Shown here piece by piece: positions 13,704 through 64,000 of a stretch of DNA of 64,000 nt (positions within the stretch are counted from its first letter, which is position 1; every line of letters starts with the position of its first letter). This DNA comes from an uncultured Nitrososphaerota archaeon. Lineage in GTDB: Archaea > Thermoproteota > Nitrososphaeria > Conexivisphaerales > DTJL01. The position numbers and the translations under genes were made by a program. Location of the stretch: contig CAWJIE010000003.1 of assembly GCA_963842885.1 (NCBI GenBank), positions 420,253-484,252 on the forward strand, given 5' to 3'. The notes beneath the pieces are model-generated. The model was not told the DNA's origin. It worked only from the letters and a program-made list of their open reading frames with translations, and made no database searches.

Positions 13704-13732
13704 CCACAATGAAATCTGAAATTCGCTTTGTG

Positions 13733-13824
13733 CGACAGTCGTCCAGCCTGGTCTAGGACATCAGCCCTCCATGATGTGAATCGGGGAAAGCTGGTAACAC
13801 GGGTTCAAATCCCGTCTGTCGCAC
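13733..13824 (+). tRNA. Intron-containing tRNA. Splicing guided by the bulge-helix-bulge motif gives anticodon UCC (Gly) with an unusual C33. A Trp(CCA) reading is possible only with a one-base register change.
   Basis: Hand-folded cloverleaf:
- acceptor GCGACAG / CUGUCGC, discriminator A
- D arm GUCC-AGCCUGGUCUA-GGAC
- anticodon stem UCAGC / GCUGG
- T arm ACGGG-UUCAAAU-CCCGU
The 17-nt intron at 13773..13789 sits at the canonical 37/38 site in a clean bulge-helix-bulge. CCUC pairs with GGGG, the bulges are CAU and AAA, and an inner helix GAU/AUC is capped by a GUGA tetraloop. Confidence 0.8.
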
Positions 13825-13947
13825 CTTGATGCCCGAATTGATCTGTGTTGACAGCTGGAAGACCTTTTCAATTGATTTTTTCCCTCGGGCTATGTCCCGT
13901 CATTGACCGGCGAAAGCGTCTGCCTGGAGACGCCCGTATAGCTCCGG

Positions 13948-14095
13948 CTAAAGGAATTCGACGAAGCCTAGGTCGCGAAGGACCTTGAGCTGCTGCCTGA
14001 TCTTCGCCTTTATGTTGCGGTTGTCAGGATGAAGCCCTCAACGACGCTCCGAACTGATATATCTTGTCAAAGGTGAACTGGGCAAACAGTCGTAT
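13948..14095 (-). pseudogene. C-terminal fragment of a restriction-endonuclease-associated winged-helix domain (gene remnant)
   Basis: The minus strand reads ...FAQFTFDKIYQFGASLRA, then after a frame change HPDNRNIKAKIRQQLQVLRDLGFVEFL with a stop at 13948. The xNxxAKIRQQLQxLRDxGxxEF pattern is one I associate with C-terminal wHTH domains of type II restriction enzymes and Dam-replacing family proteins. No intact upstream ORF exists. Confidence 0.4.
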
Positions 14096-14127
14096 GTGCG
14101 TTGGCAAGGCACGTCCCGGGATCTGCA

Positions 14128-14242
14128 AGCGTTCTCTCGCGTTCCTATCACGTTCTACCCACGTTCTCTCCACGTTCCGTGGGCGTTCCACACTCAGTCC
14201 CATTCGTTCCTCGCCGTTCTACGACGTTCCCCACGTTCTTTT
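14128..14242 (+). repeat. Array of 11 direct-repeat slots phased at about 10.5 bp, core (A/G)CGTTC(C/T)
   Basis: CGTTC starts at 14130, 14140, 14151, 14162, 14173, 14184, 14205, 14215, 14225 and 14234. Spacings are 10, 11, 11, 11, 11, 21, 10, 10 and 9. The 21-bp gap holds a degenerate copy, CTCAGTCC. Confidence 0.85.
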
Positions 14243-14474
14243 GGCATGGCGGCAACCTTCCCTGCCATGTGCCTGCAGCGAGCTCATTAGAGGCCGAAAA
14301 CAGGCTAATGACGGACAGGAAGAAAGAACTGCAGATGCGGGGATCCAGCAACAGCCACTTGGTCGACTAGGCGTCGGAGAACGTCGTCTGTTCCCCGAAT
14401 CGCTATCCGACCCAGCGACCGACCCTCGACGGGGCTGCTGGCAATCGGGGACCTTGCAACACCTTCGCAGCAAT

Positions 14475-14486
14475 TATTTAAATATA
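14475..14486 (+). promoter_or_regulatory. TATA box upstream of the first TFB gene
   Basis: tatttaaatata ends about 20 nt before the ATG at 14506, and a second box (atttaaactta) follows. It is the strongest AT-rich element in this GC-rich intergenic region. Confidence 0.5.
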
Positions 14487-14505
14487 ACTCATTTAAACTT
14501 ATAGG

Positions 14506-15486
14506 ATGTCATATATTTCTTGGCGACCCATTTTGTCCTCTAGGAGAGAGCAGTTTCCCAGCGATCAGAACGCGCAGACGGAGCGCTGCCCACGTTGCGG
14601 CAGGCGGCCCATGGTCATCGACTCTGCCAAGGGGGAGATGGTCTGCAGCTACTGCGGATTCGTCGTCAAGGAACGCATCGAGGAGACGGGTCCGGAGTGG
14701 CGCGCCTTCTCCAAGGAGGAGAAGGATGACAGGAGCAGGGTGGGGATCCCCACTTCTCTCGCCATGCACGACTATGGCTTGGCCACGGTCATCGGTTCGG
14801 AGAACAGGGATGCCTCCGGTAAGAACCTGGCTGGCAGCGTCAGGTCGGCCATCGAGAGGCTCAGGACCTGGGACGGGAGGAGCCAGGTCCACGAACCTGT
14901 GGACAGGAACCTGCGCCAGGCCTTCAGCGAACTGGACAGGTTGGCCGACAAGCTGAGCATCTCCGACGTCGTCGTCGAAAGGTCTGCCTACATCTACAGG
15001 AAGGCTCTGGATAAGGGCCTCGTGAGGGGAAGGAGCATCGGTGCCCTCATCGCAGCGTCCACCTACGCCGCCTGCAGGGTGACGGAGACCCCGAGGACCT
15101 TGAAAGACGTTGCGGCTGCCAGCGGCATGAAGAAGAAGGACGTGGCCAGATGTTATCGGCTCCTCCTACGTGAGCTTGAGCTGAGGATGCCCGTGACGGA
15201 CCCCGTGAAATGTGTCTCCAGGATCGCCAGCAAGTCAGGCCTTACTGAGAGGACGCAGAGGCGCGCGGTGGGCATATTGAAGAGGGCCATCGAATCCAGG
15301 ACGAGCGCAGGAAAGGACCCCATGGGCCTGGCTGCGGCGGCCCTCTACGTAGCCTGCGTGCTTGAAGGCGAGAACAAGACTCAGAAGGACATCGCCGAGG
15401 CTGCGGCTGTCACGGAAGTCACCATTAGGAATAGATACAAGGGGCTGAAGATGGCGTTGAAGATACAAGAGCCGGCGAAGGCATAG
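14506..15486 (+). CDS. tfb: Transcription initiation factor TFB (TFIIB homolog), copy 1
   Basis: 326 aa. It has an N-terminal Zn ribbon (CPRCGRRPMVIDSAKGEMVCSYCGFV), a B-reader/linker (GPEWRAFSKEE) and two cyclin-fold repeats (AYIYRKALDKGLVRGRSI...; AAAALYVACVLEGENKTQKDIAEAAAVTEVTIRNRYK). Confidence 0.9.
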   Translation: MSYISWRPILSSRREQFPSDQNAQTERCPRCGRRPMVIDSAKGEMVCSYCGFVVKERIEETGPEWRAFSKEEKDDRSRVGIPTSLAMHDYGLATVIGSENRDASGKNLAGSVRSAIERLRTWDGRSQVHEPVDRNLRQAFSELDRLADKLSISDVVVERSAYIYRKALDKGLVRGRSIGALIAASTYAACRVTETPRTLKDVAAASGMKKKDVARCYRLLLRELELRMPVTDPVKCVSRIASKSGLTERTQRRAVGILKRAIESRTSAGKDPMGLAAAALYVACVLEGENKTQKDIAEAAAVTEVTIRNRYKGLKMALKIQEPAKA

Positions 15487-15942: not shown

Positions 15943-16881
15943 TTGATTCATTCGACGGCATCCCGAAGATGCCCGAGATGTTCGGCCCAGACCTCCGTCT
16001 TCGATTCGACCAGCGGAGAGTACGTCTGTAACAGCTGTGGGTTCGTCCTTGAGGACAGGGCCCAGGAATCAGGCGTCGGATGGAGGGCCTTCTCCCCAGA
16101 AGAGAAGGACGCGTTGAGCCACACGGGAGCTCCTGAGTCGCTCTCCAGGCACGATATGGGGCTGTCTACCGTGATAGGGAACGAATACAAGGACGCCGGA
16201 GGCGCCAGGCTTTCGTCGGCGGCGAGGAACGCAGCGCAGAGGATGCGCACGTGGGACAACCGCAGCGTATACCGGAAGCCTAAGGACAAGAACCTGATGA
16301 TTGCCTTGAGCGAACTCTCTAGGTTGGTGGAGAAACTCAATGTGGGCCCAAACGTTGCAGAGCGTGCTGCCTACATCTATCGAAAGGCCCTTGAGATGAA
16401 TCTCGTCAGGGGGAGGACGATAACAGGGATGGTCTCCGCTTCTCTCTATGAAGCCTGCCGCAGCACTTCGACTCCCAGGAATCTGAAAGACGTCGCTGGC
16501 GTCAGCGACATGAAGAGGACGGACCTGGCCAGGTGCTATCGCCTCCTGTTGAGAGAGCTCAACCTGGCGATGCCCGTGGTGGACCCGTCAAGATGTGTCA
16601 CACGCATCGCTAGCAAGGCTGGGATGTCCGAAAGGAACCAGAGGAAGGCGCTCGAGATCCTTGCCGCCGTAAAGGATTCGAGGGGGATGTCCGGGAAGGA
16701 CCCCATGGGGCTCGCGGCTTCCGCCCTCTACCTTGCAAATACCATGATCGAAGACGAGACTCATGTGACCCAGAGGGACGTAGCCGAGGCTGCGGGCGTG
16801 ACCGAGGTGACGATAAGGAACAGGAGCAAGGGCATGCTTGAGATCATGGGCGATTTGGGCCTGAGCGCGACAGACGCATAG
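15943..16881 (+). CDS. tfb: Transcription initiation factor TFB (TFIIB homolog), copy 2
   Basis: 312 aa with the same architecture as copy 1 (CPRCSAQTSVFDSTSGEYVCNSCGFV; GVGWRAFSPEEKD; AAYIYRKALEMNLVRGRTI; VTEVTIRNRSK). The start (TTG at 15943) is uncertain. Confidence 0.88.
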   Translation: MIHSTASRRCPRCSAQTSVFDSTSGEYVCNSCGFVLEDRAQESGVGWRAFSPEEKDALSHTGAPESLSRHDMGLSTVIGNEYKDAGGARLSSAARNAAQRMRTWDNRSVYRKPKDKNLMIALSELSRLVEKLNVGPNVAERAAYIYRKALEMNLVRGRTITGMVSASLYEACRSTSTPRNLKDVAGVSDMKRTDLARCYRLLLRELNLAMPVVDPSRCVTRIASKAGMSERNQRKALEILAAVKDSRGMSGKDPMGLAASALYLANTMIEDETHVTQRDVAEAAGVTEVTIRNRSKGMLEIMGDLGLSATDA

Positions 16882-20148: not shown

Positions 20149-20246
20149 GGGCCGGTCGTCTAGCCTGGTCTTGGACGTCGCTCTGACTCGCGTTGTCGAC
20201 GCGCAGAAGACGGCGAAGATCACAGGTTCAAATCCTGTCCGGCCCA
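20149..20246 (+). tRNA. Intron-containing tRNA, most likely Val(GAC)
   Basis: Hand-folded cloverleaf:
- acceptor GGGCCGG / CCGGCCC, discriminator A
- D arm GUCU-AGCCUGGUCUU-GGAC
- anticodon stem UCGCU / GGCGA
- T arm ACAGG-UUCAAAU-CCUGU
There are 29 nt between the anticodon-stem strands. Removing 20188..20209 (22 nt) leaves the loop CUGACAC. The intron contains a CGCGU/ACGCG helix. Confidence 0.8.
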
Positions 20247-62058: not shown

Positions 62059-63137
62059 TGGCAAGACCCAACTTAGCGGCCATCTTCGTACCTTCGGCGG
62101 CCTCGCCCCCTAGACTGCTTGTCGGCCTTCTTCTGCTCGACCTGTGTGCCGTTAAATGTCGTGAGAAGCTCTTACTTTGGACCTTGAAGGAGGGGTTTCA
62201 CTATGTTTACGAGCGCAACGGGAACGGCAGGGAGCGCTACGTCTATTATTGTTCGGCCTGCTCGTGCGTCCTGGGCGTCAGGAAGGAGGTCCAGTCCGTC
62301 GGCGACCTGATGGACGGCCTCGAAGGGAAGTGCCCCGGATGCGGGAACACTTTGGAAGGGTCGATGGAATGCCGCTTCATCAAGGTGGCCGACGAATGGT
62401 CGGACATCGACCTGGCTCCACCTCGCAGGAGCAACGGGGAGCGCGTCGCCTTCCACCGGGCGTCCACGCTCATGCCCTTCTCGCTTGGCTTCCCAAAGCT
62501 CGACCTGCTGGTCCAGCCCTTGGGCCCCGGCAAGCTGCTGATGCTCACAAGCGGCGGCGCGCCCGTCGCAGCGGAGCTGGCGACGCTCAGGGCCCAGCTA
62601 TCATATGAGAGGGGAGGCCTCGATTCGACTTCGGTCTTCGTGGACGGGGGGAACTGCTCCCATCCGTACCTGTTCGCCTCCTTCGCCCGCCAGCATGGAA
62701 TGGACCCGAAGAGGGCTCTGAGGAGGGTCGTGACGTGTAGGGCCTTCACGATGTACCAGTTGGCTGACCTCGTTTCGAACCATTTGATTGATGCCGTAGA
62801 CGAGAACGCGTCGAAGCTCGTAGTCATAGCCGACCTCCTTGGCACATTCAACGAGCCGGGGCTGGACTGGAGGGAGGCCGGACGGCTCCTGGACGCCGTG
62901 AAGGGCGGCCTAGACAGGCTGCTGGCCAGGGACGTACATGTCCTCTGCACTCTCGCCTCTCCCAGTAGGCTAGACAATCTGGTCTTCCCCTGGGCGGACA
63001 AGCTTGTGGAGATGCCCGTCCTGAACGGAACGGTGCGCGCTAGGCTTGTCAGGGGGACCCCGAAGTTCAGGGCGACATGCGATTTCAAGATGGAAGACCT
63101 GCTCAGGTCTGCCTTGGTCAGGGCGGTGGCCCGCTGA
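62059..63137 (+). CDS. Zn-ribbon protein with a RadA/RadB-like RecA-fold core lacking a Walker A lysine
   Basis: The start is taken at MARPN (a TATA-like ctttacgaata lies about 25 nt upstream); the ORF track starts at 61959.
- Zn ribbon: CSACSC...CPGCG
- FPKLDLLVQPLGPGKLLMLTSGGAPVAAELA where GxxGxGKT is expected
- SVFVDGG...FARQHGMDPKRALRRVVTCRAFTMYQL (compare RadA YIDTE..F.PER...GLDP..L..I..ARA)
- KLVVIADLL (Walker B-like). Confidence 0.55.
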
Positions 63138-63397
63138 TGGGGAGGACCGTTCCTTCTTTCAGGATCGCTGAGGCCCAAGAAGCCGAAGAGTGGAAGGCCT
63201 TCAGGAGGGCTCTCCCCAAGGGAGAGAGAAAGCTCTTCGACGAAATGCTGGACACCGCCCGGCTCTACATTTCAGCCTCTTCCTCCGCCGTGAGGACCTC
63301 TCGATTCGAAGGCGTGGCCATGGCCCTCCTCTTCCATCACTTCAGGGAACTCAGGGAGATCATGGAGCTCACCGGAGAAGGGAGGGGCGCCGTGTGA
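63137..63397 (+). CDS. Small helical protein, paralog A (unknown family)
   Basis: 86 aa. The ATG overlaps the upstream TGA by 1 nt. It shares the pattern W+.F..AL....R.LF.EM....(about 20 aa)..E.[LV].M.L.F..H with the next gene. Confidence 0.5.
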   Translation: MGRTVPSFRIAEAQEAEEWKAFRRALPKGERKLFDEMLDTARLYISASSSAVRTSRFEGVAMALLFHHFRELREIMELTGEGRGAV

Positions 63398-63645
63398 GCC
63401 TGGACGGAGGGGAGATGCTCAAGGAGATGGAGAGCTGGAGGGGCTTTGGGGACGCCCTTCGCGCGGAGGACAGGGAGCTCTTCAGAGAGATGATGAGGCA
63501 ATGCCAGGAGCTCCTCCCCGCCATGGAGGCCAAGTCCTCCCCCTTCCCCAGCGAGGCGCTCTTCATGGGCCTCATCTTCCTCCAGCACAAGACCATCCTC
63601 TGGCTGCAGAAGGAAGTGGAAAGGCTCGGGCGCGAGCGGGGATGA
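63394..63645 (+). CDS. Small helical protein, paralog B (unknown family)
   Basis: 83 aa from a GTG in a GTGTGA overlap (or the ATG at 63415). It aligns by eye along its whole length with paralog A. Confidence 0.5.
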   Translation: MSLDGGEMLKEMESWRGFGDALRAEDRELFREMMRQCQELLPAMEAKSSPFPSEALFMGLIFLQHKTILWLQKEVERLGRERG

Positions 63646-64000
63646 ATGGCTGGGTCCTTGACCTCTACCCGGGGGACCCCGGTGAGATGGTCGTCTGGCT
63701 GAAGGAGGGGGCTAACAGGGCGACCAGGCTCGTGGACCGATGGACTCCCCCGTTCTACGTGGCCTGCGACTCCAAGGACGATTTAAGGGCCCTGGCCGGA
63801 GAGGAATGGCTGGCTTCGGAGGCGGAACGGTTGGCCTTCGTCGCCAGATATGCGAAGGTCACCGACAGGGAGAGGAGCGAAGTCCTCGAGATCAAGGTCA
63901 GGGACGCCAAGGCCATGCTGCGCCTCGCCGCCAAGGTGGAGGGCTCGAAGCCCTTCGGCTTCTACAGGATATACAATGCCGACGTGCCCCCCGCGCAGAC
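63642..64000 (+). CDS. polB: Family B DNA polymerase, N-terminal region (partial; continues beyond the window)
   Basis: ATGA overlap with the previous gene. GWVLDLYP....EMVVWLKEG...R...RWTPPFYVA............V....R.......EIKV...........V.......YRIYNADVPPAQ follows the N-terminal domain pattern of PolB enzymes (ILD.DY...G.P.I.L.......PYFY.......IYE.DI.F..RY). Confidence 0.6.
   Translation, partial: MNGWVLDLYPGDPGEMVVWLKEGANRATRLVDRWTPPFYVACDSKDDLRALAGEEWLASEAERLAFVARYAKVTDRERSEVLEIKVRDAKAMLRLAAKVEGSKPFGFYRIYNADVPPAQ

Follow-up and report, generated by a model that had tools for sequence, protein, structure and literature searches.

A helically phased array of CGTTC sites, probably protein-binding, at the edge of a hypervariable tRNA-Gly slot in a Nitrososphaerota archaeon

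Ten copies of the pentamer CGTTC, each followed by a pyrimidine, form a regular array between a tRNA-Gly gene and a TFB gene (TFB1) in a 64,000-nucleotide stretch of DNA from an uncultured Nitrososphaerota archaeon (contig CAWJIE010000003.1, assembly GCA_963842885.1). This stretch is referred to as the window, and positions are those of the whole 64 kb. The pattern of conserved and free positions makes it very probable that the array is a helically phased protein-binding array, a putative cis-acting docking platform of ten CGTTC(C/T) sites. The fuller statement, that such a phased protein-binding array serves, or was left by, integrative elements of the slot behind tRNA-Gly, is offered tentatively, at somewhat below an even chance. 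Relatives are cited by locus label (L200, L201, L204, L230 and others); the orthologous slot was retrieved from metagenomes with the single-copy Nep1 gene as the anchor.

Anatomy of the array and constraint on its cores

The original prediction listed ten same-strand copies of CGTTC and the spacings between them, and an exact recount agrees. On the + strand the copies start at 14130, 14140, 14151, 14162, 14173, 14184, 14205, 14215, 14225 and 14234, with successive steps of 10, 11, 11, 11, 11, 21, 10, 10 and 9 bp. They form two blocks:

14130 to 14238, + strand: the CGTTC(C/T) array, ten units, mean slot length 10.4 bp (motif count and period fit)
14130 to 14188, + strand: block 1, six units at steps of 10, 11, 11, 11 and 11 bp
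14189 to 14204, + strand: skipped slot between the blocks, the 21-bp core-to-core distance equalling two helical turns
14205 to 14238, + strand: block 2, four units at steps of 10, 10 and 9 bp, then TTTT

The predicted context, A or G before the pentamer and C or T after it, holds for the following base in all ten units but for the preceding base in just eight. A degenerate copy had also been placed in the 21-bp gap. The CAGTC found there, at 14195, matches the core at three of five positions and is not conserved, reading CAATC in L201, and the slot is better called empty. When the units are aligned, the five core columns carry 2 bits each, the following pyrimidine 1 bit and the spacer columns 0.15 to 0.5 bits, and the information content of the motif is ~11 bits. 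The period that best fits the start positions is 10.55 bp (resultant length R = 0.90), alternative periods of 10.0 bp (R = 0.41) and 11.0 bp (R = 0.64) fitting much worse. With 9-, 10- and 11-bp steps mixed in this way, all sites stay on a single helical face over 104 bp, as had been proposed.

That the clustering is far beyond chance was likewise upheld. Over the whole window CGTTC occurs 82 times on the + strand and 71 times on the − strand, near the expectation from base composition (window G+C 59%), and no 120-bp stretch outside the array holds more than two copies. The pattern CGTTC-N4-6-CGTTC-N4-6-CGTTC has six matches in the window, all of them within the array, and none in 100 dinucleotide-preserving shuffles. 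In ~1 Mb of thaumarchaeal DNA (the window and 101 loci) there is no other helically phased 5-mer cluster, the few other 5-mer clusters having six copies each at irregular spacing, and same-strand CGTTC pairs 10 to 11 bp apart are essentially absent from ~0.9 Mb of related DNA. The array is found in at least six independent assemblies and is therefore no assembly artefact.

The strongest pointer to function is the contrast between cores and spacers in relatives. Between the window and L201 (~89% Nep1 identity), 2 of 50 core positions have changed against 19 of 59 spacer positions (Fisher p = 1.6e-4), a count with an ascertainment bias, the cores having been defined as perfect in the window, and the L201 branch alone gives an estimated p of ~0.08. 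The flanks of the array-bearing module differ at 56 of 223 positions (left 16/45, right 40/178) and the four-fold degenerate sites of Nep1 at 24 of 107. Spacers and flanks thus change at about the Nep1 four-fold rate and drift about neutrally, the cores excepted. Four diverged variants (82 to 92% identity), from contigs of six metagenomes and all readable over 14146 to 14238, vary at 7 of 40 core positions versus 31 of 53 spacer positions (p = 1e-4). No variant has an indel inside the array and the flanks carry several. Individual lineages have lost one to four cores, and three of the four variants have CGTAC as the core at 14215. The array is missing from L204 and is therefore dispensable. 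The proposed check for conservation in sister genomes thus came out positive for L201, L230 and the four diverged variants and negative for L204. Read from these alignments, the constraint on cores and spacing is real but not absolute.

Conserved cores with free spacers point to a sequence-specific protein that would contact the DNA once per helical turn, and an invariant asymmetric 5- to 6-mer in each turn, with free spacers and fixed spacing, has the signature of a major-groove reader that polymerises head-to-tail. This is the anatomy of a protein-binding array, whether an iteron set, a centromere or the site of a wrapped regulator, as the original prediction had supposed. The period of 10 to 11 bp also bears out its statement that this is not an array of clustered regularly interspaced short palindromic repeats (CRISPR).

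Two further elements share the motif:

14099 to 14103, + strand: in-phase near-copy CGTTG, 31 bp (three turns) before the first unit, a perfect CGTTC in L201
14370 to 14396, + strand: 27-nt block, identical in the window and L201, with one inverted unit GAACG at 14379 (GAGAACGTCGT)

The 27-nt block lies 145 bp downstream of the array, in surroundings ~22% diverged from L201, and is complementary to unit 9 over 12 positions with a single mismatch, a match of marginal significance (p estimated at ~0.05). An inverted repeat flanking the array (14114 to 14127 and 14330 to 14343) is not conserved in L201 and is probably a chance occurrence.

A neutral leftover, that is, a functionless 11-bp minisatellite generated by slippage in decaying DNA, would fit the position of the array in a degraded segment beside a pseudogene, its absence from the close relative L204 and the disappearance of two to four cores in some lineages; Tandem Repeats Finder does call a tandem repeat, of just 2.6 units, within it. 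A decaying repeat should, however, lose cores and spacers alike, whereas here the cores are invariant in ten units and the spacers near-random, core variation between lineages is ~3 times below spacer variation, and the 9-, 10- and 11-bp steps average the helical repeat with no indels across lineages. We regard such an origin as very unlikely. A signal that sets the rotational position of archaeal histones or another chromatin protein, with the TT step each 10.5 bp fixing a wrapped complex at the slot border, would account for freely varying spacers and for a period of 10.55 bp sustained over ~105 bp. Positioning needs dinucleotide periodicity alone, though, and not an invariant pentamer plus pyrimidine on one strand; with no second such array in the ~1 Mb of related DNA, this explanation is highly improbable.

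A gene product has the smallest probability of the explanations considered and is largely refuted. It would be a peptide repeat, from open reading frame (ORF) 14064..14504 on the + strand or 14024..14203 on the − strand, or a structured or sponge RNA presenting CGUUC. All three + frames are open over the array, the minus-strand frame through it continues into a winged-helix relic (see below), and the phage look-alikes considered in the last section lie inside coding linkers. Against this, the minus-strand frame is broken, the ORFs spanning the array have no Pfam match, and their counterparts in L201 are shifted and interrupted with no excess of third-position substitutions, the second codon position being the most variable in ORF 14064. 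A period of 11 nt is, moreover, incompatible with a peptide repeat. The array region has no Rfam match even at E <= 1, and folds no better than shuffled sequence on the two strands (z = -0.47 and -1.27). No promoter for an array transcript is shared by the window and L201, and no listed RNA run covers the region, which is weak evidence. The array thus encodes neither a protein nor an RNA and has no second copy in the sampled DNA; of the two outcomes against which the original prediction was to be checked, a protein-coding gene and a dispersed low-complexity motif, neither was found.

The slot behind tRNA-Gly

The window is a core chromosomal stretch (genes for L10, Spt5, FtsY, eIF6, S19e, Rpr2, Nep1, tRNA-Gly, two TFBs, a TRAM protein and HMG-CoA reductase) that is present in peat metagenomes and has its closest matches in Conexivisphaerales metagenome-assembled genomes (MAGs). 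The array lies 305 nt downstream of tRNA-Gly and 268 to 376 nt upstream of the TFB1 start codon (14506), in good agreement with the predicted distances, and the 680 bp from tRNA-Gly to TFB1 are without any intact gene:

13732 to 13825, + strand: tRNA-Gly(TCC) with an intron, the anchor of a hypervariable integration slot
13953 to 14127, − strand: defunct 3′ remnant of a dpnI-like gene, with the winged-helix domain DpnI_C (PF17726, E = 7.5e-17)
14085 to 14416, no strand assigned: array-bearing module, 77% identical in L201, in the ~98% identical region of L230, missing in L204
14470 to 14505, + strand: TFB1 promoter region, predicted from sequence, with TTTAAATATA ~20 to 29 nt before the ATG
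14506 to 15486, + strand: TFB1, with a TFIIB zinc ribbon and two cyclin-like repeats

Turnover in relatives is concentrated behind the tRNA. The array in L230 (an ENA contig, ~98% identical over 13954 to 14743) is identical to that of the window, and the interval from tRNA-Gly to the dpnI relic with its adjoining array holds a complete-looking Hma defence island (slot content L230:837-9922) with an RNase H-like gene and genes for the HmaA helicase, the HmaB adenine methylase and the HmaC ATPase. The window is near-identical and has no such island, so that close strains differ in whether they carry it. In L200 (98%), a divergent tyrosine recombinase/integrase gene (L200:961-1569) is located ~50 nt past tRNA-Gly, at the place taken in the window by the relic and the array; the L200 contig ends after 600 nt. 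Two homologues of the L200 integrase carry the NCBI name 'site-specific integrase', and a full-length homologue (P0036, 53% identical, L221:10001-10942), encoded directly after a tRNA-Ala, matches an archaeal XerA-type model (E = 8e-8). The L200 integrase family goes unrecognised by Pfam and may be under-annotated.

On the TFB side, the order in L201 is tRNA, 118 nt, array module, a 565-bp cassette and the TFB1 promoter; that in L204 (~93%) is tRNA, ~110 nt, the cassette and TFB1, without the array, and with the TFB1 promoter and gene retained at 91% identity. The cassette, 565 to 690 bp long (L201:3484-4048, L204:about 700-1275) and inserted at the equivalent of window position about 14412-14416, encodes a membrane protein of 121 aa whose C-terminal part is a SHOCT domain, and is missing from the window and L230. 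L202 (81%) is syntenic up to tRNA-Gly, after which it has genes that in the window are located ~50 kb away and inverted. The L200 integrase, L230 island, L201/L204 cassette and L202 breakpoint together identify the slot as an integration and rearrangement hot spot, and the array is placed at its inner, TFB-side edge. Comparison of L202:5812-9067 with window positions 62733 to 64000 describes a ~50-kb inversion or rearrangement with one breakpoint at the 3′ end of the tRNA (13826); the post-tRNA genes of L202 are a family-B-polymerase-like ORF (judged by eye) and two neighbours.

The array abuts the frameshifted DpnI_C relic, whose presence agrees with the description of the segment as degraded. 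The relic covers PF17726 profile positions 19 to 63 of 70, and its 5′ boundary is at most ~10 nt from the first array unit. It has a 2-nt frameshift near 14031 to 14040, an extra GA at 14031 in a relative restoring the frame, is dead in the window and L230 and is more degraded in L201. The 3′ end of the dpnI fragment differs between the window and L230, which is consistent with island loss by recombination between two copies of the fragment. In other genomes (58 to 60% G+C) a dpnI 3′ fragment of ~200 nt is repeated two to three times (L223:2873-4192, L226:2578-5194, L228 and L229). The repeated fragment begins at ...ARGWTLDVLNVVR, HEPN/MNT, ParD or Phd/PIN toxin-antitoxin cassettes lie between the copies, and in L226 an intact dpnI lies upstream. 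Such repeats look like displaced attachment-site copies, as if small cassettes had entered the 3′ end of dpnI one after another.

Whether the array is a live regulatory site for TFB1, as the original prediction allowed, can be judged from the same comparisons. As a host regulatory or architectural element, it would be a track on which a chromosomal regulator polymerises to activate, repress or insulate the TFB1 promoter, for instance as a shield against inserts in the slot. Every array-bearing lineage has it upstream of TFB1 with the same orientation, and selection on the cores in island-free lineages would be accounted for by a resident function. However, the array is 230 to 350 bp upstream of the TATA region, and archaeal regulators usually act beside the B recognition element (BRE) and TATA box. 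The TFB1 promoter with its TATA is kept in L201 and L204, with or without the array: L204 retains promoter and gene at the 91% identity given above with no array at all, and in L201 565 bp have been inserted between the array and the promoter. Among 80 TFB-homologue loci taken from GTDB genomes, synteny upstream of the TFB and CGTTC clusters are both lacking, and CGTTC doublets at 10 to 11 bp are essentially missing from the ~0.9 Mb of related DNA. These 80 loci are paralogues or other contexts and therefore uninformative on conservation of the array itself. The TATA promoter of TFB1's own, the array-free L204, the L201 insertion and the absence of an array at TFB paralogues indicate that the array is probably not a TFB operator, and a regulatory or architectural role for the host, more broadly, is unlikely.

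A second, tandem TFB paralogue is located at 15943 to 16881. Homologues of TFB1 with 87 to 93% amino acid identity are present in related MAGs (L001 to L005, L015) in entirely different gene neighbourhoods, several of these MAGs having two copies. TFIIB genes are reported to be common cargo of thaumarchaeal mobile elements, and thaumarchaeal conjugative elements pair TFIIB with ParB (PMC6563490). We considered the window TFBs as part of such a conjugative element with the array as its centromere, but no ParB or conjugation gene follows them. Rfam also places a second tRNA at 20149 to 20246 (47 bits, 98 nt, presumably intron-containing) that ARAGORN does not report.

Possible service to integrative elements

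A location at the inner edge of the slot and the junction with a dpnI 3′ fragment are the reasons for linking the array to mobile elements. We suggest that a small sequence-specific protein, of the winged-helix or ribbon-helix-helix (RHH) kind, could bind the array with one subunit or dimer per turn, and that cooperative head-to-tail binding would build a nucleoprotein complex, either a short filament or one in which the DNA is wrapped and bent. In this capacity the array may serve integrative elements as they enter and leave the slot behind tRNA-Gly, our first choice being excisionase or Cox-type recombination-directionality sites in an attachment (att) arm, and our second choice the iterons or centromere of an element formerly in the slot. 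The binding protein would be supplied in trans, by the island in strains that have one or from elsewhere in the chromosome.

Several observations weigh against this assignment. No par, rep, xis or int gene is present near the array in the window, and no copy of the tRNA-Gly 3′ end (allowing up to 3 mismatches in 25 nt) was found as an element boundary. Neither PLSDB plasmids nor GenBank phages gave a blastn match to the module, searches of IMG/VR with the conserved 27-mer or a two-unit pattern returned no homologous array beyond chance single hits, and there is no array in L221 or L222, where the integrase relatives (~53% identical) are encoded, or beside other dpnI_C fragments. Ten sites exceed the usual excisionase array. 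The ascertainment bias and the core losses described above weaken the case for constraint, and the purifying selection is itself awkward, since it is seen in island-free lineages (the window and L201), which would not be expected had the array served only a lost element, and so favours a resident function or recurrent use. The original prediction had alternatively proposed a relic of a lost element. The L200 integrase and the L230 island make descent from a lost element plausible; purifying selection on cores and spacing argues that this is not a freely decaying relic.

A different view, which we hold to be distinctly improbable, is that the host maintains the array as a 'landing-pad' or boundary element, a kind of cis-site undescribed in archaea, at which a protein filament marks the fixed inner border of the slot. 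The filament might assist the recombinases that load and unload defence islands, or might insulate the neighbouring TFB gene. This would explain selection on the cores with and without an island while the tRNA side turns over.

The neighbours of the array offer no obvious partner. They are tRNA-Gly, the dpnI_C relic, the two TFBs, and TRAM and CxxCxxCC proteins; no actin-like, ParA, ParB or RHH gene was found, and the earlier statement that no cognate partition or initiator gene is nearby was thus confirmed. The winged-helix dpnI_C relic itself was considered as the binder, but this is unsupported as the gene is dead and its homologues, which are 52- to 102-aa ORFs or dpnI-like 3′ fragments in defence islands, have no adjoining arrays; a paralogue of the relic acting in trans could conceivably bind. 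No relatives of the integrase were found in IMG/VR, and exact look-ups of the Nep1 and TFB1 proteins returned no record.

A sharp motif, strict geometry, evidence of selection and natural alleles with and without the array make it a practical bait for the binding protein. Once found, that protein could show by what mechanism these uncultured archaea swap islands at their tRNA slots. Even as a mere relic, the array would indicate where an integration hot spot ends on its inner side, an aid in delimiting islands in MAGs.

Comparison with known systems

Numerically, the closest match is parC of plasmid R1, in count, period and two-block layout (6 + 4 units in the array versus 5 + 5 in parC). In R1 parC the 11-bp iterons come in two sets of five on one helical face, with approximately one RHH ParR dimer bound per repeat (PMC2241845). 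The parC clusters flank the parMR promoter with a 39-bp gap, whereas the gap in the array is one skipped slot, 21 bp core-to-core, and contains no promoter; the array also differs from parC in its chromosomal setting and in having no parM/parR-like or ParA/ParB gene nearby. Of the features of a type II centromere, it therefore has the phased clusters of ~10- to 11-bp repeats and not the adjacent par-operon promoter.

As replication iterons the repeats lack an adjacent initiator, there being no initiator, rep, primase or helicase gene within ~5 kb, and lack an AT-rich unwinding element. The GC content is 0.54 to 0.55 across 13750 to 14500, and the sole AT-rich stretch near the array is the TFB1 promoter, of ~35 bp. 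Nor does the array resemble an archaeal origin, where origin recognition boxes (ORB or mini-ORB) flank an unwinding element next to orc1/cdc6: the repeats are all direct, and no orc1/cdc6 was present among the ORFs scanned with Pfam, up to ~43 kb. Iterons of 11 bp are known from rolling-circle plasmids, such as the bind locus of pMV158 RepB. An IMG/VR scan for CGTTC(N6)x4 returned more than 119 matches, mostly perfect, unrelated 11-bp tandem repeats, and these were used as analogues only. Of seven contigs examined that have CGTTC every 11 bp with variable spacers, six have it in or beside replication genes, either inside DnaD-like or O-like initiator genes (L160, L085, L090 and L126) or beside primases (L155 and L094). 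The initiator genes with cores (L160:6614-7495, L085:5719-6552, L090:8990-9940 and L126:2358-2816) belong to a family that recurs among contigs of ~5 kb. Four to eight GAACG/CGTTC cores, one every 11 bp, lie inside their low-complexity linkers (...ER..N..ER....), an arrangement suggestive of a replication origin built into the initiator gene. The array shares with these phage-initiator iterons an anatomy of core and free spacer; CGTTC is shared because the search demanded it, and the look-alikes are analogues without homology to the array.

Regulator sites are less similar. Sites for Lrp/FFRP regulators are imperfect palindromes of ~13 to 15 bp, placed 2 to 3 turns apart at the regulated promoter, whereas the array sites are asymmetric 5- to 6-mers on one strand, one per turn and >230 bp from a promoter. 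The pho boxes are 11-bp direct repeats at which OmpR/PhoB winged-helix domains bind head-to-tail, with 2 to 8 boxes overlapping the −35 region. The array resembles them in its direct repeats with an 11-bp period, conserved core of 5 to 7 bp and free spacer positions, and differs from them in being >230 bp from the nearest promoter and dispensable for that promoter (L204). CRISPR arrays have repeats of 24 to 48 bp with unique spacers of similar length, in contrast to the 10- to 11-bp period here.

Recombination-directionality arrays share with the array several boxes at 10 to 11 bp. The winged-helix Cox protein of P2 recognises at least six boxes 10 to 11 bp apart over at least 70 bp, including at attP, and forms a filament that wraps or bends the DNA with one protomer per helical turn (PMC3936717). 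Like the P2 cox-boxes (at Pc, P4 PLL and attP), the array has short boxes each 10 to 11 bp, here ten over 105 bp. Cox, Apl and Xis sites are found in an att arm; the array is beside an integration slot and abuts a junction-type gene fragment, and no duplicated tRNA end was seen. Unlike the Cox/Xis systems, it has no xis- or cox-like gene and no identified att core in the window, and its cores are conserved in lineages without an element. It is further distinguished from the P2 sites by its archaeal host, the single orientation of all ten sites and the sequence CGTTCY rather than TTAAAG/CNCA.

In bacteria and phages, phased direct-repeat arrays dock plasmid centromere proteins, replication initiators and excision factors. 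To our knowledge, almost none have been described in Nitrososphaerota (Thaumarchaeota). Mobile elements of this phylum are known from genome comparisons only, with their cis-acting sites unmapped, and published accounts of integrated elements at thaumarchaeal tRNA genes mention no such cis-arrays (PMC6563490). The kind of array is thus a known one, and this member is new in its motif, in its host phylum and in standing as an orphan beside an island slot.

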